Shown here piece by piece: positions 8,534 through 21,292 of a stretch of 26,344 nt of DNA. Both the position numbers and the translations under genes were made by a program. Positions within the stretch are counted from its first letter, which is position 1; each line of letters opens with the position of its first letter. Where the stretch lies: contig JAYSQK010000396.1 in the NCBI GenBank assembly GCA_043721555.1, forward strand, positions 1-26,344, in the 5' to 3' direction. The notes under the pieces are model-generated. The model was not told the DNA's origin, did no database searches, and worked only from the letters and a program-made list of their open reading frames with translations. The DNA is from Frankiales bacterium (GTDB lineage: Bacteria; Actinomycetota; Actinomycetes; Mycobacteriales; SCTD01).

Positions 8534-10879
8534 TCAGTCAGCTTCCACGTCGGCGACGCCGGTGATCCGGTGGATCGAGAAGGTGCGGTCCTCTTGGCGC
8601 AGATGGTCGTACGCCGCGACGTAGCCACCCTCGACCGACCGTGGTTCGACCACCCGGCTGGTCGAGCGGCCCTGCGCGTCGACGTAGCCGAGCCAGACTT
8701 GTTGGCCGCTTCTGGCCGCCTGCTGCAGGAAGGCCAGGGTGTCGACGGTCGTCGACCGGGTGGTGGTCACCGGCGCTCTGCGGGCCGCGCGGGCAGCCAG
8801 ATCACCTGCCCGCAGGGCGATCACGCCGAGGCGCGCGGACTCGTCGCTGATCGACGGCGGCTCGCCGTGCCGACTGGGTCGTTGCCGGACCGGGGTACGC
8901 CGGGCCTCGGGCCGGGCGAGCAGTAGCGCGCCGTCCGGGGCCTCGGCGGCCGGGGCGTGGCCGAGGGCCCGCAGCACCTCCAGCACCTGGTTGACCGGGG
9001 CCTGGCTGGCCAGGACGGTCGGGGCGAGCCGGCGCAGCCGCAGCCCCTCGGCCTTCTTGGTGGCGAGCACCTCGGTGAGCAGGGCCTCGTCGTCGCACCG
9101 CAGGTAGGACGTGGCCACGCCGACCCGCAGCCGGCCGTGCCGCCGGGCGACGTCGTCGATGAGATAGGTCAGCCCCTGCGGCACCGGGGTCCGCGACCGG
9201 GTCCGGAACAACTCCTGCAGGTCGCTGGCGCTGCGGCCGAGGTCGAGGGCCCGGCGGACCGTCTGCTCGGTGACCCGGTAGACGGTGGCCCCGCCCGTCG
9301 ATTCGACGTCGGCGACGGCCGCCATTTCGCGGGCGAGGTCGCGTTCGAGCGGGCCGGGCGCGATCACGGTGAGATCGGGTTGCACCAGGACGTGGTCGAG
9401 CGGCGCGGGGAGCAGGGCGGCGAGCTGCCGGGCCGCCAGCCGGTCCTCACCCGCCAGCAGCGAGCGGGTGAACGAGGACGGGCCACCGCGGCCGGTCACC
9501 CCCAGCTGCTCGGCCTCCTCCAGGGTCCAGCCGGTCAACACATCGCGGAGCCGGCCACCGCGGCGCGGGGCCCGCCAGGTCAGCAGGCCGGCGACCGAAT
9601 CGGGGGTCGGGGCCTTGCCGGGGGGCGCCTCGATGAGCAGGTCGAGGACCCGACGTCGGTCGGTCGGGGCGGACGGCCGCTCGAGCTCCGGACCGAGGGC
9701 AGGCAGCGCCTTGTCCCGGTCGTCGCGCTCGCCGATCAGCGCGGGCAGTCGGGTCAGCTGCAACCAGGTCCGGGCCAGTACGACCCAGCGATCCTCGGCC
9801 GGGCGCGCGAGCCAGCTGTCGAAGCCTGGGGTTGGGACCCATGCCGGATCCACGCTGGGGGTCTGGTCGAGCAGCCCGGCCGCGTGGGCCAGCTCGACGA
9901 GCAAGCCCGCCGTCCGCTCGGTGACGTCGAGGTCCTTGGCGGTCCGGCGCAGGTCACGGACGCCGAGGCCACCCGAGCGCAGGACCGGCGGTGGCAGCTC
10001 GGCCCACGACTCGAGCAGCGCCTCGACCTTGCTGACCACGTCGGCGGCGGTGAGCCCGGCCGCCCGGTCGACGGCCCCCGCCCCGGGCGCCGCAGCGTCC
10101 AGTGTCGGGGCGGTCGGCCTGAGCTCGCCCAGCGGTGAGGCGCCGCGCATGGCGATGCCGACCTCGCGGGGCAGCTCGACGGTGCCGTTGTCGATGGCGA
10201 CGAGCAGGCTGTGCCCTAGCAGCCAGCGGACCGGGTTGTCGAGCTCGTCGTCGGTCACCGGGCGCATCGCGTCCCGGACCTCACCGAACGGCGGACCGGC
10301 CGACAGCGAGGTCAGGACAGCTCGCGCTGCGGGACTCGCTGTGTCGAGCAGCTGCTGCAGGCGGGCCGGGTCGGTCAGGACGTCGAGCACCTGCGCCAAC
10401 CCGCCTGGCGAGCCGAGCCGAGCCGCGACCGGCGCCAGCTGGGCGTCCCGGTGCCGCCCGAGGCAGACCGCGAGCGGTCGTCCCAGCCCGGCGGCGCTGC
10501 CCGACACGACGTCGCGGACCGGCCCGACCACGTGCAGCGCGTCGTCGTCCCCCCAGACGAGGGCGAGCTCGACGAGCTGGTCGAGGGCCTGGCGGACCTG
10601 GGTGGGCTCGGCCGACGGACCGACAAGTGTCTGGAGCCCGGCGTACGACGTGGGGCCGTCGGTGAGGCAGAGGGCGTCGAGAACCGACAGCACGAAGGCG
10701 TCGAGTTGCTCGAGCGCGCGGAGCACCGACAGCCGGACGGCGGCGCGGGCCGCGAGCACGCCGAGGTCGGGCGGGACGGGCACGGCGAGGTCCGGCCGGG
10801 CCTGCAGCAGGCGGGCCAACTGGGCGTCCGGCCAGGCGCGCAGGGCGTCCGCGAGGCTGCGGGGCACGGCGCGGTCCAT
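8534..10879 (-). CDS. XPB-associated protein with Helicase_C_3-like domain and C-terminal WYL domain (Rv0862c-like)
   Basis: N-terminus [27 protein letters not shown]; [14 protein letters not shown]...[14 protein letters not shown]; C-terminal [17 protein letters not shown]...AYDHL...RTFSIHRI (WYL-like). Start moved from 11569 to ATG 10879. Confidence 0.9.
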
Positions 10880-10886
10880 CCGGACG

Positions 10887-10892
10887 AGGCTA
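10887..10892 (-). promoter_or_regulatory. -10 box (TAGCCT) of a leaderless transcript for the Rv0862c-like/xpb operon
   Basis: TANNNT hexamer 7 nt before ATG 10879; no SD. Confidence 0.6.
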
Positions 10893-10973
10893 GTCGCCGG
10901 TGCGCGCGGCCGCGGTCCGGGAACGTCGGGGCGATGACCGCCGACGAGGGCCGGCGACGCAGCCAACGGTGCT

Positions 10974-10998
10974 GGCTGAGATCCGCGCGAACTCAGCC
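10974..10998 (-). terminator. Possible hairpin terminator after the lipoprotein gene
   Basis: GGCTGAG (10974-10980) pairs with CTCAGCC (10992-10998) and overlaps the stop codon. No U-tract. Confidence 0.3.
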
Positions 10999-12108
10999 GT
11001 TGAGTGATACCGCCGCACCGACCCCGCTGAACTGGCTGACGAACTGGTCGATCAGGGCGCCGACGTCGAACGACGAGATGTTGGTGGGGGCGCTCACCGG
11101 CGCCGCCGAGTCGTCGAGCTGGAGCACGATGGCACTGCTGCCGAACGGCGGAACCGACGTCGACGGATGGGCGTCGAGGGCGGCGAGGCCGGCGAACGGC
11201 ACCGAGAGCTTCGTGTAGTGACCCCGGGTGATGGTCAGCGTCGCGGACAGCGTCTTGGCGCTGACGTCCTTCAGCGCGTCGCCCTTGGGGATGAGGCCGG
11301 CGGGCAGTCCGAGCGTCGCCGCGTCGCTGGAAAGGACGCCCAGGACCGCGGTGAGGGCCTGCTTGACCTTGATGTCGATCGAGACGTTGCGGCTTCCACC
11401 CGTCGCGCCGAGGTCGGTCAGCCCGATGTTGGGCTTGATCGCCGCCTGCAGGTCCCTGCCGAGCTTGGCGTAGCCGCGGGCCTTGGCCGGGTCGGGTGCC
11501 GCCCCACCGCCTGCCTTGGCGAGCTTCTGCAACTGCTCGACGTAGCTGGCGATCGGGACCTTGAGCCACTTCCCGGCTTTGAGGTCGTCGGCGCCCTGCT
11601 TGAGCTGCGGCGGCACGCTGGTGAGGAAGGTGTCGACCTGCGCGCCAGCTCCCGGACCGCCGAGGTCGGCGGCTTTCTTGACCGCCGTGATGTCGGAGGT
11701 GGCGTAGAGGATCCCGTCGACGAGCCGGATCTCGGCGAGCTTGCCGCCCAGACCGCTGACGTTCAGGTCGAAGTTGCTCTGCTTGACCTGCTGGCTGAGC
11801 GGCTCGTTGGGGTCACCCTTGGCGAACAACGTCCGGCCGCCATTGGCGCTCACCGTGAAGCTGATCGTCGCGCCGATCACCGCCGCGGCCTGGGCCGCGG
11901 TGGTGCTGCTGTCGCCCGACCGGATCGCCTTGGCCAGCTTGCCGTCGGGGTCGCTGAAGCCCAGCGTCACCGACAGCGACTTCGCGGCTTGCAGCGAGGA
12001 TTTGGCGTGCGCGTTGTCGGCTCGCAGACTGCCGGCGGCACCGCACCCGGCCACGGCGATCGCGCCCGTGACCGCGAGGGCGAGCAGGCTCGTGGTCGTG
12101 CGCTTCAC
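10993..12108 (-). CDS. Putative lipoprotein of unknown function
   Basis: GTG 12108 with SD GGGAG. Signal peptide [22 protein letters not shown] with lipobox VAGC; 371 aa; beta-rich mature part. Confidence 0.8.
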
Positions 12109-12308: not shown

Positions 12309-12908
12309 ATGACACCGACCGCCACCTTCGTCCTCGCCGACCGCGCCCTCGACCGCGTGGTGCAGCAGGTGCGTGACGACCAGTGGGACACCGTCCTGCC
12401 GGCCTCCTTCGCGCGGCAGGGCGCGCCCGACCAGCCGGTGACCCTGCGGCAGGTGCTCGGCTACCACGCCTACGACGAGGCGTGGATGCCCGACATGCTC
12501 GCGGGCCGCACGATGGACCAGGTCGGCGCCACGGCTTATGACGGCGACCTGCTCGGCGACGACCCGCGGGCCGCCTTCCACGCGCTCGTCGAGCGGGGCG
12601 TGGCGGCGGCGCAGGAGCTGACCGACCTCGACCGCGTCCTGCACTTTTCCTACGGCGACTTCCCGGCGCGCGAGGCGCTCTGGCACGTCATCTCGTTCCG
12701 GGGCCTGCGTGCCGTCGACCTGGCGCGGGTGATCGAGGTCGACGAGACGCTCGACCCCGACCTCGTGCTGGCCATGTGGGAGGAGTTCCTCCCCCAGGCC
12801 GAGGCGTGGCGGGCCATGGGGGTGTTCGGCCCCGCTGTCCAGGTCGCGCCCGACGCCCCGCTGCAGGAGCGGCTGCTGGGGCTGACCGGGCGCGAGCCGC
12901 GGGCCTGA
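12309..12908 (+). CDS. TIGR03086-like DinB/YfiT-superfamily (MDMPI-like) protein
   Basis: VRDDQWD...TLRQVLGYHAYDEAW.PD.LAG...GDLLGDDP...FSYG...DLA...GVFGP.V.V.PDAPLQERLLGLTGR. SD GGGAG. Confidence 0.85.
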   Translation: MTPTATFVLADRALDRVVQQVRDDQWDTVLPASFARQGAPDQPVTLRQVLGYHAYDEAWMPDMLAGRTMDQVGATAYDGDLLGDDPRAAFHALVERGVAAAQELTDLDRVLHFSYGDFPAREALWHVISFRGLRAVDLARVIEVDETLDPDLVLAMWEEFLPQAEAWRAMGVFGPAVQVAPDAPLQERLLGLTGREPRA

Positions 12909-12947: not shown

Positions 12948-14192
12948 TCACACCGCCGCGTGGACGGGCGGGTCCGCCGGGTCGGGCAGGTCGTCGAGGC
13001 GGGCGAGCGCGCGGGTGGAGCGCGGCAGCAGCGCCAGGGCCATCGCCGCGGCGCCGACCAGGCCGCCGCTCAGCAGCAGCCGACGCTCGCCGACCAGGGC
13101 GCCGAGCGGGCCGGCCAGCAGGTAGCCCAGCGGGAGCAGCGCCAGCGAGCCCATCCAGTCCCAGGCTGACACCCGGGACAGCAGGTGCGGCGGGATGCGC
13201 TGCGCGAGCGCGGTCTCCCACCACACGATGAACAGCCCGATGCCGAGCCCGGCGGCCGACATCACCGGGAACAGGACCGGCAGCGGAGCGCCGACGGCGT
13301 ACACGGACAGGCTCAGCGGCCACGGCACCGCGGCGAGCAGGGCGGCGCGCATCGGCCGCTCCGGGCGCCAGCGGGAGCCGACGAGCGCGCCGGACACGGT
13401 CCCGACCCCCCAGGCCGCGTTGGCAAGTCCGTAGACCGCGGACGTGCCGTAGGCGTCCTGCGCGAGCGCGGCGCCGAGCACGAAGAACGGCGCCAGCGCA
13501 ACCAGCAGCGCCACCGAGAAGGCCAGCACGGTCGCCCAGACCCAGGCCCGCTCGCGGACGGCGACCCAGCCCGCGCGCAGGTCCTGCAGGACGCTGGCCG
13601 GCGGGGCCGGCTCGCCCCGCTCACGCGGCCGCAGCCGCAGCAGCAGCAGCGCCGAGACCACGAAGCTCAGCGCGTCGAGGGCGAAGGCCGCCGAGGCCCC
13701 GACGCCGAGCACCAGCGCCGTCGCCAGGGCCGGGCTCGCCACCTCGGAGATCTCCGCCGACACGCCGGACACGGCCTGGGCGTCCTGGATGCGGTCCTCG
13801 CCGACGGTCTGCGGGACCAGCCCGGTGTAGGCCGGCCGGAAGAAGGCCTCGGCCGTGCCGAACACCATGCCGATGATGACCATCTGCCAGATCCGCACCG
13901 TGCCCGTGAGGATCAGCGCCGCCAGCACGGCGTGCAGCACGGCCCGGACCGCGTCGCTGACCACCATCACCCGCTGGCGCGGCAGCCGATCGGCGACCAC
14001 CCCGCCGAGGAGCACGAACGCAACGAGCGGCACGGCGTAGGCGGCGAGCACCAGGCCGACGTCGGCCGGATTGCCCGTCAACCGGGTGATGAACAACCCG
14101 ATCGCGACCACGACCAGACCGTCGCCGAGCAGGCTGATGCTCTGCCCGAGCCACAGCAGTCGGAACTCGCGCAGACGCAGGACGGAGAACAC
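12948..14192 (-). CDS. MFS transporter
   Basis: REFRLLWLGQSISLLGDGL, MFS motif A GGVVADRLPRQRVM, about 12 hydrophobic segments. Start moved to GTG 14192. Confidence 0.9.
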   Translation of the reverse strand: MFSVLRLREFRLLWLGQSISLLGDGLVVVAIGLFITRLTGNPADVGLVLAAYAVPLVAFVLLGGVVADRLPRQRVMVVSDAVRAVLHAVLAALILTGTVRIWQMVIIGMVFGTAEAFFRPAYTGLVPQTVGEDRIQDAQAVSGVSAEISEVASPALATALVLGVGASAAFALDALSFVVSALLLLRLRPRERGEPAPPASVLQDLRAGWVAVRERAWVWATVLAFSVALLVALAPFFVLGAALAQDAYGTSAVYGLANAAWGVGTVSGALVGSRWRPERPMRAALLAAVPWPLSLSVYAVGAPLPVLFPVMSAAGLGIGLFIVWWETALAQRIPPHLLSRVSAWDWMGSLALLPLGYLLAGPLGALVGERRLLLSGGLVGAAAMALALLPRSTRALARLDDLPDPADPPVHAAV

Positions 14193-14199
14193 GACACCC

Positions 14200-14205
14200 A
14201 GTCTG
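14200..14205 (-). promoter_or_regulatory. Putative -10 box (CAGACT) of a leaderless MFS transcript
   Basis: CANNNT hexamer 7 nt before GTG 14192. Confidence 0.5.
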
Positions 14206-14393
14206 ACAACCGGGTACGACGGGTTTTCCCGTGCCCAGTTCACCTCCCGGCCGGCCAGTGGCGGTTGCCGGCTCGAGGCCGGCGCCGCCGGCCGGGTCTT
14301 GCTCCACGAGGCCACCCCGCCGCGCCAGCCGCCCAGGTGTTCCCGCCGCGCCAACGCTGCTCGCCGAAACTGGCTCCCTGCCCCCCGTCCTGA

Positions 14394-14456
14394 TGATCCA
14401 CGGAAGGTCGGGCACGTGATTTGGCTCCCTACAGGTGCCCAACCGTCCGTGGATCA
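14394..14456. repeat. Long inverted repeat (22-bp arms, 2 mismatches)
   Basis: TGATCCACGGAAGGTCGGGCAC (14394-14415) pairs with GTGCCCAACCGTCCGTGGATCA (14435-14456). Confidence 0.85.
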
Positions 14457-14508
14457 CCTGCCTGGGCAGCCACGCCGGTGCCGCCCCGGGCGGCGGCTAC
14501 TCGGGACT

Positions 14509-14611
14509 GCGACCACAACAGCAGGGAAGCGGAGTCAAGCGACGCCCGGGCCACGCTCGGCGGGCGGTAGAGCCAAGCGGATCGGTGCGCCTTCCCTGCT
14601 GTTCTGGTCGC
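14509..14611. repeat. Long-range inverted repeat (21-bp arms, 1 mismatch) enclosing 61 nt with an inner hairpin
   Basis: GCGACCACAACAGCAGGGAAG (14509-14529) pairs with CTTCCCTGCTGTTCTGGTCGC (14591-14611). Inner CGCCCG/CGGGCG pair. Confidence 0.85.
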
Positions 14612-14659
14612 GCCGCCCCGCTACCCGCGTCCCGGCAGCGGTCGATCGCGGGCTCGACC

Positions 14660-14665
14660 TACGCT
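14660..14665 (+). promoter_or_regulatory. -10 box (TACGCT) of a leaderless HAD-LarE transcript
   Basis: TANNNT hexamer 6 nt before GTG 14672. Confidence 0.6.
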
Positions 14666-14671
14666 GCGGGG

Positions 14672-16105
14672 GTGGATCTCGCCGTCGGCTTCGACCTCGA
14701 CATGACGCTGGTCGACCCCCGGCCAGGCGTCATCGCTGTCGCGGCGGTCCTCGCCGAAGAAGAGGGCGTGGCCATCGACGGGGCCCTTTGGGCCAGTCGG
14801 CTCGGGCCGCCGCTCGAGCACGAGCTGGCGCACTGGGTGGCGCCCGACCGCGTCGAGCCGGTCGCTCACCGCTACCGCGAGCTGATGGCGCAATTCGGCG
14901 TCCAGCGGACCGTGGCCCGCAAGGGTGCCCGTGAAGCTGTCGACGCTGTACGCGCGACCGGCACCCGGGTCGCCGTGGTCACCGCCGAGCAGGAGGCGCT
15001 GGCTCGGCAGACGCTGGCCCAGGTCGGGATCGAGGTCGACGCCGTCGTCGGCGGGGTCTGGGGCGCGGGCAAAGACGCCGTCCTCCGCGAGCTCGGCGCG
15101 GTCGTCTACGTCGGCGACCATCCGTACGACGTCCTTGCTGCCCGGGCGGCCGGTGCGCTCAGCGTCGGGGTGGGCACCGGTGGCGCCGAGCCGGTTGGCG
15201 CCGACGTCGTGATCGACGACCTGACCGGCTTCCCGGCCTGGTGGTCAGACCAGCTGCTGACGCTGCGGCTCGGCGTACTCGAGGTCCGGCTGCGCGAGCT
15301 CGGGAGCGTGCTGGTGGCGTTCTCCGGTGGCGCTGACAGCGCGTTCCTGCTGGCCGCGGCGGTCCGGGCCCTCGGCGCTGGGCAGGTCGTGGCCGCGACT
15401 GCTGTCAGTCCCTCGCTGGCCGCCACCGAGCTGCCACCGGCGGCTGCGTTTGCTGCCTCCCTCGGCGTCCGGCATCTCACGCCCGGCACCGACGAGCTCT
15501 CCCGGGAGGGCTATGTCGCCAACGGCGCCGACCGGTGCTTCCACTGCAAGGCCACCCTGCTCGACACGCTCCGGCCGCTCGCCCACGGCCTCGGCCTCGC
15601 GGCCGTGGCGACCGGTACCAACGCCGACGACGCCGTCGCGGGCTTCCGGCCAGGTATCCGTGCGGCCGCCGAACGGGCGGCAGTCACCCCACTGCTGGAC
15701 GCCGGGCTCACCAAAGCCCAGGTGCGCGAGGCGTCCCGCCAGTGGGGATTGGTCACCGCCGACAAGCCGGCGCTCGCCTGCCTCGCCAGTCGCATTGCGT
15801 ACGGCGTGCAGGTCACTCCCACCCGGCTGGCCAGGGTGGACCGGGCCGAGACACGCTTACGGGAGTTGCTGGCGCCGACTGACGTCCGGGTGCGTGACCT
15901 GGGCGACGCCCGGGCGAGGGTCGAGCTCGACCCCGAGGCGCTCGGCCGGTGGGATGCGGCGGCCCGGGACGCCGTACGCGCCGAAGGGTTCGAGCAGGTC
16001 GAGGCGGGGGTGTTCCGCAGCGGGTCGCTGAACGATCTACTCGTGCGAGCGGGCGCTGCGGAACAGCCCGAGCAGGGCCAACCCGAAGCCGATCGGCAGC
16101 AGTAG
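14672..16105 (+). CDS. larE: Fusion protein: N-terminal HAD-superfamily phosphatase plus C-terminal LarE-family PP-loop sulfur insertase
   Basis: HAD motifs: FDLDMTLVD (I), VVT (II), GK (III), YVGDHPYD (IV). LarE motifs: [10 protein letters not shown]-loop, [52 protein letters not shown]. Single uninterrupted frame, 477 aa. Confidence 0.88.
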
Positions 16106-16270
16106 GGCCAAGAGGTCGAGCCCGGCAGGGGCGTCTCGCCGGGTGCCCGCCAGAAACGGCACGAGGATTGCCAGGATGCCGATGACACCCACGGCGAAGA
16201 TGCCCGCACCGAGGCGCACGAGCAGGTCGCCGGAGCGCCGCTCACGGGGAGCGGCGTGTCGGGCGGTCAC
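16037..16270 (-). CDS. Small two-TM membrane protein (positional equivalent of Rv0870c)
   Basis: [26 protein letters not shown]...[21 protein letters not shown]; divergent from the cold-shock gene. GTG 16270 lies 7 nt after TAATCT. Confidence 0.75.
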
Positions 16271-16276
16271 ACGGCC

Positions 16277-16283
16277 TAGATTA
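16277..16283. promoter_or_regulatory. Overlapping divergent -10 boxes
   Basis: TAGATT on + (16277-16282) for the cold-shock gene; TAATCT on - (16278-16283) for the membrane protein. Confidence 0.6.
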
Positions 16284-16310
16284 GTGGTCCCACGAGCGAG
16301 AGAAGGCCCC

Positions 16311-16694
16311 GTGCCCACCGGCAAGGTCAAGTTCTACGACAAAGACAAGGGCTTCGGCTTCGTCGCGCGCGACGACGGCGGTGACGTCTTCGTCCCGAAG
16401 GCTGCGCTGCCCGAAGGTGTCGAAGAGCTCAAAGCCGGAACCCGTCTGGAGTTCGGCGTCGCGGCCGGCAAACGCGGCGAGCAGGCGCTGTCGGTGCGGG
16501 TCCTCGACGCCCCGCCGACGCTGGCTGCGGCCCGCCGCCCGGCCGAGGACCTGCAGCTGATGGTCGAGGACATGATCAAACTGCTGGAGGCCAAGGTGCA
16601 GCCGTCGCTGCGCCGGGGCAAGCACCCCGATCGCGACACCGGCAAGCGGGTCGCGCAGATCCTGCGCGCGATCGCCGACGAGCTCGAAGGCTGA
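16311..16694 (+). CDS. cspB: Cold-shock domain protein with helical C-terminal extension (CspB/Rv0871 type)
   Basis: [18 protein letters not shown] (RNP1)...GGDVFV (RNP2)...LEFGV..GKRGEQA, then ...[11 protein letters not shown]-like GAGAAGG before GTG 16311. Confidence 0.9.
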
Positions 16695-17071: not shown

Positions 17072-17524
17072 TTAGCGCTGGACCAGTTGGAAATTCCACA
17101 CGCCCGTCACCGTCGCATTTTCCGCGACCCGATTCAGGGATCGCACCTCGAGGTCGATGACGCCAGGGGTCGGCCGGTTGGCGAAGTTGGCGTTGAAGGT
17201 GAAGTAGTGCTTGTCCTGCACGGCCGAGCGCTGCTTGGCATCGGCGTCGACGAGCTCCCAGCCGTTGTCCGACAGCACCTTGTCGACGTCGATGCCGACG
17301 AGATCGCCGTTGCGGACGCGGAGCACCTCGCGCCGGCCGCCGTGGGTGACGCAGTCTCGCTTGGCCACCGTCTGGCCGTCCCGGCAGTAGACCGCGGACT
17401 CGGTGCGCACCCGGTGTCCGCCGCTGACGAGGGTGACGGCCGGCGTCGGCTGCTGGCAGCCGGCGACCGCGGCGAGGGCGGCGAGCGCCGCCAGCGACGT
17501 GACGACGGGGCGGCGGGCGGTCAT
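17072..17524 (-). CDS. DUF2771-like lipoprotein
   Basis: ATG 17524 with SD GGAG; lipobox VAGC followed by QQPTPAVTLVSG...ESAVYC; syntenic position. Confidence 0.75.
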   Translation of the reverse strand: MTARRPVVTSLAALAALAAVAGCQQPTPAVTLVSGGHRVRTESAVYCRDGQTVAKRDCVTHGGRREVLRVRNGDLVGIDVDKVLSDNGWELVDADAKQRSAVQDKHYFTFNANFANRPTPGVIDLEVRSLNRVAENATVTGVWNFQLVQR

Positions 17525-17726
17525 GTCGGGGCTCCGGTCTGGGCTGGGTCGACCGCGCGGCCGGCGGCCGGCGTGATGGACTTGGGTCATGGCAGGAGTT
17601 GGGCGCAGGCTGCGCGAGATCACCACGAGAGTATCCGGCGCGATGGCAGGTGCCCGTGCCGATGGGGTCCCCGCACCGGCAATCGACAACACTGGTCCCG
17701 CACCCACCCAGCCGCAGGAGCCCCCC

Positions 17727-18518
17727 GTGACCCCAACCCCCGCGCTCGACATCGACGCGCTGCTCGCCGGCGCCGTCGAGCTGGCCCGCTCCGTCGCGAT
17801 CGAGGCCGGTGGCAGCTCCGTCGGTGAGCACCTCGTGGCCGAGTCCGACGGCGAGCTGGTCGTCACGCACAGCTTCGCCAGCACCGATCCGGCCTACGTC
17901 GGTTGGCGCTGGGCCGTCACGGTCGCCCGCACCGAGGGCAGCGACGAGGTCACCGTCGACGAGGTGGTCCTGCTGCCCGGCGGCGGCGCCCTCGTCGCTC
18001 CCGCCTGGGTGCCGTGGAGCGAGCGGGTACAGCCGGGCGACCTGGCGCCCGGCGATCTGCTGCCGCCTCCGGTCGATGACCGGCGCATCGTCCCGGCGTA
18101 CGCCGATCCGGAGGCCGACCTTGCTGCTGCGGCCTTCTGGGAGCTGGGCCTCGGCCGGGCCAGGGTGCTCTCCTTCGAGGGCATGGTCACGACGGCCGAC
18201 CGCTGGTACGACGGGGACCGTGGCCCCACCGCGCCGATGGCCCGCCAGGCCCCAGGCCGGTGCCAGGACTGCGCCTTCCTCGTGCCGCTGAGCGGCGCGC
18301 TGCGGGCGGTGTTCGGCGTCTGCGCCAACGCCCAGTCGCCCGACGACAGCCGGGCGGTGTCGCTCGACCACGGTTGCGGCGCCCACAGCGAGACCCCCGT
18401 CGAGCTCGCGCATGTGAGTGGGCCGGGCATGGTGGTCGAGGACGACGCGTTCGAGCTGGTCGCCATGGCGCAGCCGGAGGGCCCCGAGGCCGAGACGCCG
18501 GACGGGCACGCCAGCTGA
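17727..18518 (+). CDS. DUF3027 family protein
   Basis: GYxGWxW-like AYVGWRWAVTVAR, VTVDEVVLLPG, PAWVPWSER.QPGDL.PGD, RARVLS.EG, CQDCAF...FGVCAN...DHGCGAHSE. SD AGGAG 6 nt before GTG 17727. Confidence 0.9.
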   Translation: MTPTPALDIDALLAGAVELARSVAIEAGGSSVGEHLVAESDGELVVTHSFASTDPAYVGWRWAVTVARTEGSDEVTVDEVVLLPGGGALVAPAWVPWSERVQPGDLAPGDLLPPPVDDRRIVPAYADPEADLAAAAFWELGLGRARVLSFEGMVTTADRWYDGDRGPTAPMARQAPGRCQDCAFLVPLSGALRAVFGVCANAQSPDDSRAVSLDHGCGAHSETPVELAHVSGPGMVVEDDAFELVAMAQPEGPEAETPDGHAS

Positions 18519-21292
18519 CCGACGCCGGGACCGACATCGGCCACGACGCCGGGGCGGACCCGCACGGCACGGCCGCGCTGCGCGCCGCGGTCCTCGCCTC
18601 GTGGGCGGCTGCACCGGCCCGGTTCCGCGAGGACGCCAACGCCGAGGACGACCTCGCGCTCGGTGGCTACCGAGACCGGCTCATCGTTGAGCTGGCGCAG
18701 AATGCCTCTGACGCAGGCGAGGTACTCCGACTCCACCTGGCCGACGGAGTGCTGTCGGCGGCAAACACTGGCCAACCGTTGACCGCCGACGGGGTCGTCG
18801 GGCTCTCGACGCTCCGCGCTTCGGCCAAGCGGGGTGGCCGGACCGTCGGCCGGTTCGGCGTCGGGTTCGCGGCCGTGGCCGCCGTCTCGGACGAGGTCGA
18901 GGTCAGGTCCACCAGCGGGTCGGTTCGCTTCTCCCGCGCACTGACCGCCGAGGCGGTGGCGGCCCTGCCGTCGCTCGCCGGCGAGCTGGCGGCCCGCGAC
19001 GGACGAGTCCCCCTGCTGCGGCTGCCGTTTGCGAGTGTCGGGCGACCCCCGGCAGGCTTCGACACCGAGGTCAGCGTGGTCGTCCGTGCAGCGGCGGTGC
19101 CTGCTGTCGCAGCGGCGCTCGCCGGCGTCGACCCCACCCTGCTGCTGGTCCTGCCGGGGCTCAGCCGGCTCGAGGTCGACGACCGCGTGCTGACCGTCGA
19201 GCCCGACGGGCCGGACGTCGTCGTCGCCGCGGTGCGCTGGCGGGTCGTCCGTCGCGAGGGCGAGCTGGACCCCGCGTTGCTGGCCGGCCGGCCGGTCGAG
19301 GAGCGTGCACAGACCCGGTGGTCGGTCCTGTGCGCGGTGCAGGTGACGCCCGCCGGGGTCCCCCTCCCCCTCCCGGACGGGATCCAGGCGGTCGTGCGCG
19401 CGCCGACACCCACCGATGACCCGCTGTCCCTGCCGGCCTTGATCGCGGCGTCGCTGCCCCTCGGCCCGGACCGCCGCCGGGTCGCCCCGGGACCGCTCCG
19501 GGACGCCGTACTGCGGCACGTTGCCGAAGCTCTAGTGGAGCTCGTCGAAGGGCTCGCCGACGACCCAGCGCGGCTGCGGTTCGTGCCCGGTCCGCTCGGG
19601 GCGGGCGAGGTCGACGCGGCGCTGGGATCGGCTGTGCTGCAGGCGTTCCGGGTCGCGCCGGTCCTTGCGGGGGATCGGCAGCCGCGCGACGCCGTGGTGC
19701 TCGACGGCGCCACCCCCGACCTCGTGGACCTGCTCGGGGACCTGCTGCCCGGTGTCCTCCCGCACGAGTGGTCGAGGTCCCGCTGGGCCCAGCCCCTGGG
19801 CGCCCTCGGGGTCAGGCGGATCGACCTGGCCGAGCTCACCGAGATCCTTGCCGGGATCGACCGCCCGGCCGCCTGGTGGGGCCGGCTCTACGCCGCGCTG
19901 CCGCCGGACGCCGACCAGCTCGGCGCGCTGCCGGTGCCGCTCGTCGGCGGTCGACTGGCGCCCGGGCCCAGGGGGTTGCTGCTCGCCGACGCGGTGGTCG
20001 ACCTGTCCGCGCTCGGCCTGCGGGTGGTCGACCCCGCCGCCGCGCATCCGCTGCTGCTACGGCTCGGCGCGGTCGAGGCCGAGCCCCGCGGGCTGCTCGA
20101 GGATCCGCGTCTGCGGGCGGCGGTGGAGCAGGCCCTGGACGAGGAGGACCCCGGTCCGCTGGTCGAGGCCGTGCTCGGGCTCGTCGGCGCCGCCGGGGTG
20201 CGACCGGGCGAGCTCCCCTGGCTGGCCGAGCTGCCGCTGCCCGACACCGAAGGCCAGTGGCGTCCGGCCGGCGAGTTGCTGTTGCCGGACGGCCCGTTGG
20301 CCGCGGTCGTCGACACCTCAGCGGGGTTCGGCGTGGTGGCCGCCGGGACGGCCCACGACGACGTGCTCGCCGCCGTCGGCGTGCTGCGCGGCTTCGCCGT
20401 CGTCCCCGTCGAGGCGGCGGACGACGTCGACGGTCTTGACGACTGGCTCGACTCCCTGCCGCCCGGCGCCGAGCCGGGTCTGGTCGTCCGCGACCTCGAC
20501 CTCGTCCGTGAAAATGCCTGGCCACAGGCGTTGTCGATGCTCGAGCCAGCACTCACGCCCTACGCGGTCTGGTGGCTGGGTCGGCATCGGGTCCTCGACG
20601 GGCAGTGCCCCCTCGATCTGCGCCTGCCGGGCTCGGATCCGTTGCTGGCAGGGCTGTACGACGAGACGCAGCACCCCCTGGCCGCCCGGCTGGGGGCCCG
20701 CACGACGATCGCGGAGCTCGACCCGGACGACCTGGTCGACCGGCTCGCCGACCCTGAGCGGCAGGTCGGGCGCGATCAGTTGCGGGCGCTGTACGCCGCG
20801 CTGGCGACCGCCGCGCTCGACCCGCCCGACCGGGTGCGGGCGGTCCTCGACGGCGAGCTGGCCGTCGTGCCGGCCGAGGACGCCGTCGTGGTCGACCGGC
20901 CGGATCTGCTGGCCCGCGTCTCGCCGTACGCCGTGCTGCCGGTGCCCTTGGCGCTGGCCGTCGACCTCGCGCAGGCCCTCGATGTCGCCCTCGCCTCGGA
21001 GGTCGTGCCGGCTGTCGACCCGGGCGGGACGCCAGGGCCGTGGCGATCGGTCTGCGACGTCGACGCACCGGGTCGGGTGGTGGTCCACGACGGGCTGATG
21101 GCGTCGACGGCCGGCGGCGAGCAGGTGCCCGTCAGCTGGCTGGTGGCCGGCGGGGTCGACCACGTCGTCGGCGCCGACGGGATGGCCCGTGCGCTCGCCT
21201 GGCGTCTCGGCGACTGGGACGCGAGGCACGCCCTCGCGGCCCGGCTACGCGGTGACAACGATCCGGCAGAGAGTGATCTCGACCGGGTGTGA
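18515..21292 (+). CDS. Sacsin-N-terminal-like GHKL (Hsp90-like) ATPase domain protein; start codon probably CTG
   Basis: DP.GTAALR..VL.SW...PARFREDANAE.DL..GGYRDRL.VELAQNASDA (GHKL motif I), ANTGQPL, GRFGVGFAAV. No in-frame ATG/GTG/TTG between 18260 and the conserved N-terminus; CTG 18515 overlaps the DUF3027 stop. Confidence 0.85.
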   Translation: MTDAGTDIGHDAGADPHGTAALRAAVLASWAAAPARFREDANAEDDLALGGYRDRLIVELAQNASDAGEVLRLHLADGVLSAANTGQPLTADGVVGLSTLRASAKRGGRTVGRFGVGFAAVAAVSDEVEVRSTSGSVRFSRALTAEAVAALPSLAGELAARDGRVPLLRLPFASVGRPPAGFDTEVSVVVRAAAVPAVAAALAGVDPTLLLVLPGLSRLEVDDRVLTVEPDGPDVVVAAVRWRVVRREGELDPALLAGRPVEERAQTRWSVLCAVQVTPAGVPLPLPDGIQAVVRAPTPTDDPLSLPALIAASLPLGPDRRRVAPGPLRDAVLRHVAEALVELVEGLADDPARLRFVPGPLGAGEVDAALGSAVLQAFRVAPVLAGDRQPRDAVVLDGATPDLVDLLGDLLPGVLPHEWSRSRWAQPLGALGVRRIDLAELTEILAGIDRPAAWWGRLYAALPPDADQLGALPVPLVGGRLAPGPRGLLLADAVVDLSALGLRVVDPAAAHPLLLRLGAVEAEPRGLLEDPRLRAAVEQALDEEDPGPLVEAVLGLVGAAGVRPGELPWLAELPLPDTEGQWRPAGELLLPDGPLAAVVDTSAGFGVVAAGTAHDDVLAAVGVLRGFAVVPVEAADDVDGLDDWLDSLPPGAEPGLVVRDLDLVRENAWPQALSMLEPALTPYAVWWLGRHRVLDGQCPLDLRLPGSDPLLAGLYDETQHPLAARLGARTTIAELDPDDLVDRLADPERQVGRDQLRALYAALATAALDPPDRVRAVLDGELAVVPAEDAVVVDRPDLLARVSPYAVLPVPLALAVDLAQALDVALASEVVPAVDPGGTPGPWRSVCDVDAPGRVVVHDGLMASTAGGEQVPVSWLVAGGVDHVVGADGMARALAWRLGDWDARHALAARLRGDNDPAESDLDRV

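Follow-up and report, generated by a model that had tools for sequence, protein, structure and literature searches.

A HAD phosphatase-LarE fusion gene of uncultured Mycobacteriales, most likely formed by larE landing beside an unrelated resident gene

Introduction

LarE inserts sulfur into P2CMN in the synthesis of the nickel-pincer nucleotide (NPN). In the stretch of DNA analysed here (26,344 nucleotides of contig JAYSQK010000396.1 of a Frankiales bacterium, assembly GCA_043721555.1, called the window below) one gene encodes a HAD-type phosphatase joined to LarE. Gene fusions are often taken as evidence that two enzymes share a pathway. The question raised by this locus is whether the phosphatase has a role in nickel-pincer synthesis or whether the fusion records the neighbourhood of two genes. 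An earlier note on this DNA, made from the sequence alone, knew of no characterised HAD-LarE fusion, and a full-text literature search likewise found no description of one. The architecture is a new combination of two known families. In the present study the integrity of the gene, its two halves and their junction, its chromosomal slot, its distribution and the presence of its pathway partners are described, and on this basis the possible meanings of the fusion are weighed.

Results

The fused gene is intact

In the ORF reading of the window, the fusion gene (Table 1) is a single 477-codon frame with no stop and no frameshift, in agreement with the earlier note. Its codon-position GC (GC1/2/3 = 0.82/0.52/0.87) is even over the HAD and LarE halves; the 237 bases 5' of the ORF have a non-coding look (0.73/0.73/0.76). 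The source genome is a 2.56-Mb metagenome bin of 606 contigs, 73% complete, and the named genomes nearest to it are MAGs called "Frankiales bacterium" and "Mycobacteriales bacterium". The first protein search yielded more than 120 full-length protein clusters with an identity of 69-89%, all from uncultured Mycobacteriales/Frankiales bins, and overall the full-length fusion homologs show an identity of 69-93%. Of 20 related loci, 19 can be read without interruption through both domains, from the beginning of the HAD to the end of LarE; the other one has a frameshift inside LarE. A soil-metagenome unitig from a different study spans 14926-15292 and crosses the HAD-LarE junction with 0 differences; the metagenome unitig comparison reported neither insertion nor deletion within the fusion ORF. 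In seven further metagenome runs (two studies; sediment and soil) 78-87% of the sampled words of the fusion stretch are present. The worry voiced earlier, that the fusion might be unique to one assembly, is dispelled by the open frame in 36 genomes of the family and by the unitig identical at the junction.

An apparent joint in metagenome contigs that skipped 700 bases was treated as spurious, having sides of only 22 letters and 25 foreign letters. In two cases, L045/L127 (genome G064) and the contig of P0127, the fused gene is broken within the LarE half; the former shows a frameshift at about LarE residue 71-76, the latter a split into 262 + 191 residues. These interrupted genes could be sequencing errors or early pseudogenes. 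P0127 had appeared to be a 262-residue stand-alone HAD and is most likely a frame-broken fusion, as two consecutive genes, of 262 and 191 residues, precede the cold-shock gene there.

The AlphaFold2 model of the whole fusion has a mean pLDDT of 82.9 and a pTM of 0.75. At the end of the protein residues 450-477 have a pLDDT below 50, and the final 22 residues are predicted to be disordered. Mean column conservation in the tail (residues 456-477) is 0.55, and in the relatives the stop codon comes earlier or at another position.

Table 1. Position of the fusion gene, its domains and motifs, and the neighbouring features in the window
Feature	Position	Strand	Remarks
Helicase_C_3 + WYL protein, left anchor of slot	8534..11569	-	syntenic
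MFS transporter, divergent to fusion	12948..14354	-	
Divergent intergenic region upstream of fusion	14355..14671	.	two long inverted repeats
HAD::LarE fusion gene	14672..16105	+	477 codons plus stop, GTG start
HAD phosphatase domain, residues 1-190	14672..15241	+	subfamily IA/COG0546-like, helical cap
HAD motif I, D8/D10/T12	14693-14707	+	
HAD motif II, T104	14981-14983	+	
HAD motif III, K134	15071-15073	+	
HAD motif IV, G148-D149/D153	15113-15130	+	
Junction, residues 187-210	15230..15301	+	HAD C-terminal tail merged with first LarE helix
LarE domain, residues 196-455	15257..16036	+	
PP-loop, S218-GGADS223	15323-15340	+	
Cys289-x-x-Cys292	15536-15547	+	
Cys370	15779-15781	+	
Predicted phosphate binders S373; R406, R408	15788-15790; 15887-15895	+	from alignment to L. 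plantarum LarE
C-terminal tail, residues 456-477, and stop codon	16037..16105	+	non-conserved
Cold-shock-domain gene, right anchor of slot	16143..16694	+	syntenic
DUF2771	17072-17884	-	3' of cold-shock gene
DUF3027	17589-18518	+	3' of cold-shock gene

The HAD half retains its catalytic residues

Pfam HAD_2 matches residues 7-167 (E 3e-13, 50.7 bits against a gathering threshold of 23.8), and together with the matches to HAD (43.9 bits, cut-off 27) and Hydrolase (40.9 bits, cut-off 26.4) a span of 4-167 is covered. The four HAD motifs, D8-x-D10-x-T12, T104, K134 and G148-D149...D153, had been noted as intact; they are, moreover, invariant over 121 fused homolog clusters and also kept in the stand-alone orthologs. 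In the AlphaFold2 model the domain has a pLDDT of 84-97, and the cap helices (17-31, 37-42, 48-52, 58-79 and 86-95), placed between motifs I and II, lie between strands 4-7 and 99-103. Values of dN/dS, 0.18-0.28 for HAD vs 0.11-0.23 for LarE, indicate purifying selection on both halves. Because the catalytic residues are invariant in those 121 clusters and dN/dS stays at 0.18-0.28, the HAD domain can be taken as functional where it is kept. Fused and stand-alone HADs have 77 conserved positions in common, the cap signature included, and differ at 5; by this comparison the fused HAD gives no sign of changed specificity. Scores against the models for phosphoglycolate phosphatase (TIGR01449, 45.3 bits vs a cut-off of 180) and pyrophosphatase PpaX (NF009804, 23.5 bits vs 218) are low. 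It should be noted that the "phosphoglycolate phosphatase" names carried by HAD homologs are automatic labels.

The LarE half is of the three-cysteine type

NCBIfam TIGR00268 covers residues 203-454 (model positions 6-259 of 259) with 258.6 bits vs a cut-off of 150, and the best 50 Foldseek PDB matches are all LarE, with a target TM of 0.70-0.84. Model confidence is lower in some blocks of this half (pLDDT 53-70). The PP-loop SGGxDS is invariant in 39 aligned homologs. Also invariant are S373, R406 and R408, which align with Ser180, Arg212 and Arg214 of L. plantarum LarE, the residues that bind the substrate phosphate in that enzyme (PMC9283937). The cysteines C289, C292 and C370 are invariant as well, and their sequence contexts match those of Cys92/Cys95/Cys172 of T. 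maritima LarE, the three-Cys pattern known from that protein (PMC9283937). In the alignment to 5UDQ the mark of the sacrificial subclass, a lone Cys at the Cys176 position with no CxxC, is absent. Since an Ala stands at the Cys176 position and a CxxC pair is present, the three-Cys LarE seen here is probably mislabelled by NCBIfam as "sacrificial". As far as can be judged from its residues, the LarE half is of the catalytic three-Cys [4Fe-4S] type, which would adenylate P2CMN and insert sulfur.

One junction is common to all fusions

Stand-alone HADs stop 5-13 residues past a conserved DLT-x-FP-x-W, with the tail pattern ...FPAW-x-DGHLL. The tail of the closest stand-alone HAD reads W-Y-DGHLL; in the fusions W-L-DGHLL passes straight into the first LarE helix, with no separate linker, and residues 187-210 are modelled by AlphaFold2 as a single continuous helix with a pLDDT of about 95. 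The joining without a linker that was described from the window is thus confirmed as a stand-alone HAD tail continuing into a LarE helix. All 17 non-redundant fusions, the most divergent (L019 and L032) included, have the same junction. One junction common to all fusions indicates that the fusion arose once, and the junction itself appears to be the mark of a one-time stop-loss fusion of neighbouring genes. A complex prediction with the HAD and LarE halves as separate chains gave a score of 0.00, which speaks neither for nor against an interface.

It had also been claimed that LarE has no start codon of its own. Between codons 181 and 212 there is indeed no in-frame ATG, GTG or TTG, so that in this genome LarE is not separately translatable from a normal start; the nearest in-frame starts are GTG180, in the last HAD strand, and GTG213/215, directly 5' of the PP-loop. 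The earlier description of the fusion as "obligate" therefore holds for translation in this genome and fails in evolution, where relatives with LarE alone exist.

The fusion occupies a conserved slot outside any lar operon

The fusion gene lies outside any lar operon. Its place is a conserved slot of actinomycetes, with the order Helicase_C_3/WYL, small HAD, cold-shock, DUF2771 and DUF3027. HAD alone fills the slot in four other Mycobacteriales families (G037, G040, G028 and G038), in a metagenome contig (P0125/L110) and in Streptomyces bacillaris (P0161/L112), which bears out the statement in the earlier note that the HAD at this locus is usually stand-alone in actinomycetes. These stand-alone HADs have about 205-230 residues and are 47-64% identical to the HAD half studied here. 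HAD::LarE fills the slot in the fusion clade. Many close relatives have LarE alone, with the helicase gene within a few hundred bases, and in three genomes (G006, G008 and G019) the slot is empty and LarB, LarC and LarE were not found.

In the window an ORF at 12309-12908, with no Pfam match, and the MFS transporter separate the helicase gene from the fusion gene. This arrangement was seen only in L022 and L023, the closest two loci long enough to show it; at other fusion loci the helicase gene is at most about 1.5 kb from the HAD start and in some directly adjoins it. The ORF and the transporter gene look like a recent insertion into the slot. The divergent intergenic region contains an inverted repeat at 14394-14456 (25-nt arms, 88% complementarity) and another at 14509-14611 (21-nt arms, 95%, 61-nt loop), and for the fold of 14500-14680 a value of z = -2.1 was obtained. 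A scan of the whole window gave no Rfam family, and no sigma-70 or intrinsic-terminator consensus was found around the fusion gene. Further 3', beyond DUF3027, window positions 18260-21292 hold a conserved ORF of about 890-1010 residues with no Pfam match, which is syntenic across the family and other Mycobacteriales at an identity of 41-93%.

The fusion is confined to three families of the sampled order, and its halves have probably been lost again

Among 78 species-level genomes of the family, 36 have the intact fusion, 25 have LarE alone, 11 have no match, 3 have a broken or contig-cut fusion and 3 are undecidable. In a sample of 401 genomes of the order the fusion occurs in 3 of 19 families (f1, f8 and f14), and no independent HAD-LarE fusion was found outside the fusion clade. 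Fused and LarE-only states coexist inside single genera (g2, g9 and g12). In the LarE tree they interleave, and well-supported branches demand at least 6 state changes; in the HAD tree the HAD-only proteins P0125 and P0123 are nested among fused HADs. The order of events is read here from single-gene trees. In LarE-only genomes no HAD ortholog was found elsewhere, only paralogs of at most 37% identity. No HAD remnants were found 5' of LarE-only genes by tblastn at E up to 10, nor any FPxW relic in the in-frame translation upstream of them, and no LarE remnants were found by tblastn in the HAD-only locus L110. With no HAD relics found, the support for an order of fusion first and loss later comes from the trees, from the HAD-only outgroups and from the junction that all fusions have in common. 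We infer that the HAD part has been repeatedly lost by close relatives, including within single genera. Allelic recombination at the syntenic locus could mimic such repeated loss.

Two apparent HAD matches were discarded. In L070 (Pirellulales) a match that seemed to begin at HAD residue 140 comes from a LarE that has no HAD, its N-terminus being extended by an unrelated stretch, and the match "92-467" in G009 was not upheld as a remnant by inspection of the locus and tblastn. Two bins, G017 (contigs C84 and C94) and G057 (C661 and C415), each contain, besides a second LarE locus, a contig with the fusion whose identity to the window is 90-93%. For the second locus the full syntenic slot was confirmed in G017. 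These bins probably mix two populations. LarE copies close to the clade are also present, without the helicase/cold-shock synteny, in the genome of Nocardioides marinquilinus and a related MAG (L046 and L048), which suggests that larE has been horizontally transferred out of the clade. Two unpublished genomes (G005 and G030) serve as extra rows in the co-occurrence tallies only, and no conclusion depends on them.

LarE is accompanied by LarB and LarC, mostly with no LarA homolog found

On contig C256 of the source genome LarB is the direct neighbour of LarC, LarC continuing on C448, and such an adjacent pair co-occurs with LarE in the relatives also. Among 41 relatives examined, all genomes that gave a LarE match, whether to a fusion or to LarE alone, also contain LarC, and LarB is above the cut-off in all LarE-bearing genomes except G036, where the match is in two pieces. 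In G037, G038 and G040, which have the HAD alone, neither LarB nor LarC reached the cut-off, and LarE and LarA gave no match. The presence of a stand-alone HAD in genomes where the Lar pathway was not found indicates that the ancestral job of the HAD is independent of it.

LarA homologs (PF09861, NF033504) were not found in most of the fusion-bearing genomes. There is no match in the source genome, nor in G004 (97% complete), G018 (98%), G011 (92%) and G031 (95%). In the source genome and three relatives no candidate user of the cofactor was found beside larB-larC; the neighbours there (serS, DUF4446, pheA, PAS, SDR and a nitroreductase-like gene) are housekeeping or unrelated. In these aerobic actinomycetes of soil and sediment the nickel-pincer cofactor may serve a non-LarA enzyme.

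Discussion

The present data are best described by an adjacency fusion, in which two enzymes became joined while each still works on its own; it arose once and has been tolerated and often reversed, and we consider this account probable. The origin of the fusion is most likely larE landing beside an unrelated resident HAD gene. In an organism ancestral to a few uncultured Mycobacteriales/Frankiales families, larE would have been placed directly 3' of the resident gene, and loss of the HAD stop and a short spacer would then have welded the HAD tail onto the first LarE helix. The LarE half most likely pairs with the larB-larC products encoded elsewhere to make the nickel-pincer nucleotide. The HAD half presumably continues the COG0546-type phosphatase reaction of its stand-alone ortholog, independently of the nickel-pincer pathway. 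Being tolerated rather than required, the fusion could be undone by deletion of either half in different lineages. Certain observations stand against this account. The catalytic residues of the HAD are invariant in every fused copy examined, a rigid and conserved helix joins it to LarE, and in most fusion-bearing genomes no LarA homolog was found. Invariant catalysis and a rigid junction leave room for a specialised role of the HAD inside the fusion, and the scarcity of LarA makes an unusual use of the cofactor conceivable.

These same observations are the substance of the proposal that the nickel-pincer pathway has taken the fused HAD into its service. There the domain could hydrolyse the PPi or AMP set free in the two adenylation cycles of LarE, clear wrongly made or surplus NaMN, P2CMN or P2TMN, or supply a non-LarA enzyme with a dephospho cofactor. 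A role of this kind had been put forward in the earlier note. The conservation of the catalytic residues with a dN/dS of about 0.2, across 60-93% identity, and of the junction helix agrees with it, and so does the kinship of the domain with HAD_2-type enzymes, which include PpaX (a weak NCBIfam match) and AlnB (a profile match, 4EX6). However, the ortholog stands alone at the same locus in G037, G038 and G040, where LarB, LarC and LarE were not found, and the HAD was repeatedly lost while LarE, LarB and LarC remained, close relatives having LarE alone in the slot and no HAD ortholog genome-wide. The conserved signature is common to fused and stand-alone HADs, cap included, with no specificity-changing substitutions between them. 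LarC cytidinylylates the phosphate of P2TMN (PMC11796402), so that dephosphorylation at an earlier step would block the synthesis of the cofactor. On balance recruitment of the HAD to the pathway is weakly supported and unlikely, with a chance large enough to be taken seriously. A narrower form of the idea is that in LarA-less actinomycetes the fused HAD was co-opted to act on pyridinium mononucleotide, making a dephospho cofactor or proofreading P2CMN/P2TMN, with an unknown non-LarA enzyme as the user. This we regard as a long shot. If true, the fusion would act as a Rosetta stone that reveals a new branch of NPN metabolism.

A further proposal moves the novelty into the other half, which would be a PP-loop sulfurtransferase/ATP-pyrophosphatase paralog acting on another nucleotide, its product being trimmed by the HAD. 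It can draw on the position of the gene outside any lar operon and on the result that no LarA homolog was found in the source genome (73% complete) and in several relatives that are 92-98% complete. However, larB, larC and larE occur without larA in about 15% of surveyed genomes (PMC11796402), the score lies far over the LarE equivalog cut-off, and the half combines the P2CMN phosphate binders of L. plantarum with the Cys triad of T. maritima LarE. A different substrate, as suggested in the earlier note, is made unlikely by the retained phosphate binders and by LarE tracking LarB-LarC in the 41 relatives, and the paralog proposal as a whole is very improbable. That a mis-assembly or sequencing error erased the stop between two genes is a natural suspicion for a fragmented metagenome-assembled genome of 606 contigs. 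It is refuted by the more than 120 full-length clusters, by the open-frame relatives, 36 in the family survey together with members of two other families, and by the unitigs identical across the junction in another study's metagenome, and its probability is practically nil.

The adjacency fusion is of interest because its history is readable almost stepwise: a gene was resident, a neighbour arrived, the loss of a stop fused the two, and either half was then lost repeatedly. Such a stepwise evolutionary record suggests that little about function can be read from the fusion. The value of the locus is that of a cautionary and well-resolved case of fusion by neighbourhood, and it warns against wrongly transferring an "NPN phosphatase" label to a HAD family that is widespread in actinomycetes. 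Some single genera naturally hold LarE alleles both with and without the HAD, which are material for testing how much the extra domain matters. The frequent occurrence of LarB, LarC and LarE without a LarA homolog adds to the question of other enzymes that use the cofactor.

Comparison with known systems

AlnB acts on a ribose-5-phosphate adduct. It is among the solved proteins that match the whole HAD domain in profile searches (M. tuberculosis PtkA 6F2X, AlnB 4EX6, 2AH5, 3MC1 and 3SD7; E 1e-12 to 1e-15), and PtkA, AlnB and phosphatases from structural genomics are the nearest proteins of known structure. The domain here scores far under the phosphoglycolate phosphatase and PpaX equivalog cut-offs, and thus no substrate can be transferred to it from the solved COG0546 relatives. 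Its closest counterpart is the stand-alone actinomycete HAD, as in S. bacillaris (P0161), with which it is 52-59% identical and has in common the four motifs, the cap signature, the slot, the orientation and the FPxW tail; the difference is that here no stop follows the tail and LarE continues in frame. The LarE half resembles the enzymes of T. maritima and M. maripaludis (8CNZ) in the PP-loop SGGxDS, in the phosphate-binding Ser/Arg/Arg and in the CxxC with a distal Cys, in the contexts DRC-x-x-C and KPA-x-AC-L-x-SR, and in fold it is like the [4Fe-4S] LarE of M. maripaludis (8CNZ, TM 0.81). Unlike both, it carries a 190-residue N-terminal HAD, its gene lies outside any lar operon and no LarA homolog was found in the genome. 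With L. plantarum LarE (5UDQ), which is described as a hexamer (PMC7118094), it has about 30% identity, a TM of 0.77-0.84 and the residues that bind ATP and P2CMN in common, but the sacrificial Cys176 is replaced by Ala, a Cys follows one position later and a CxxC pair is added.
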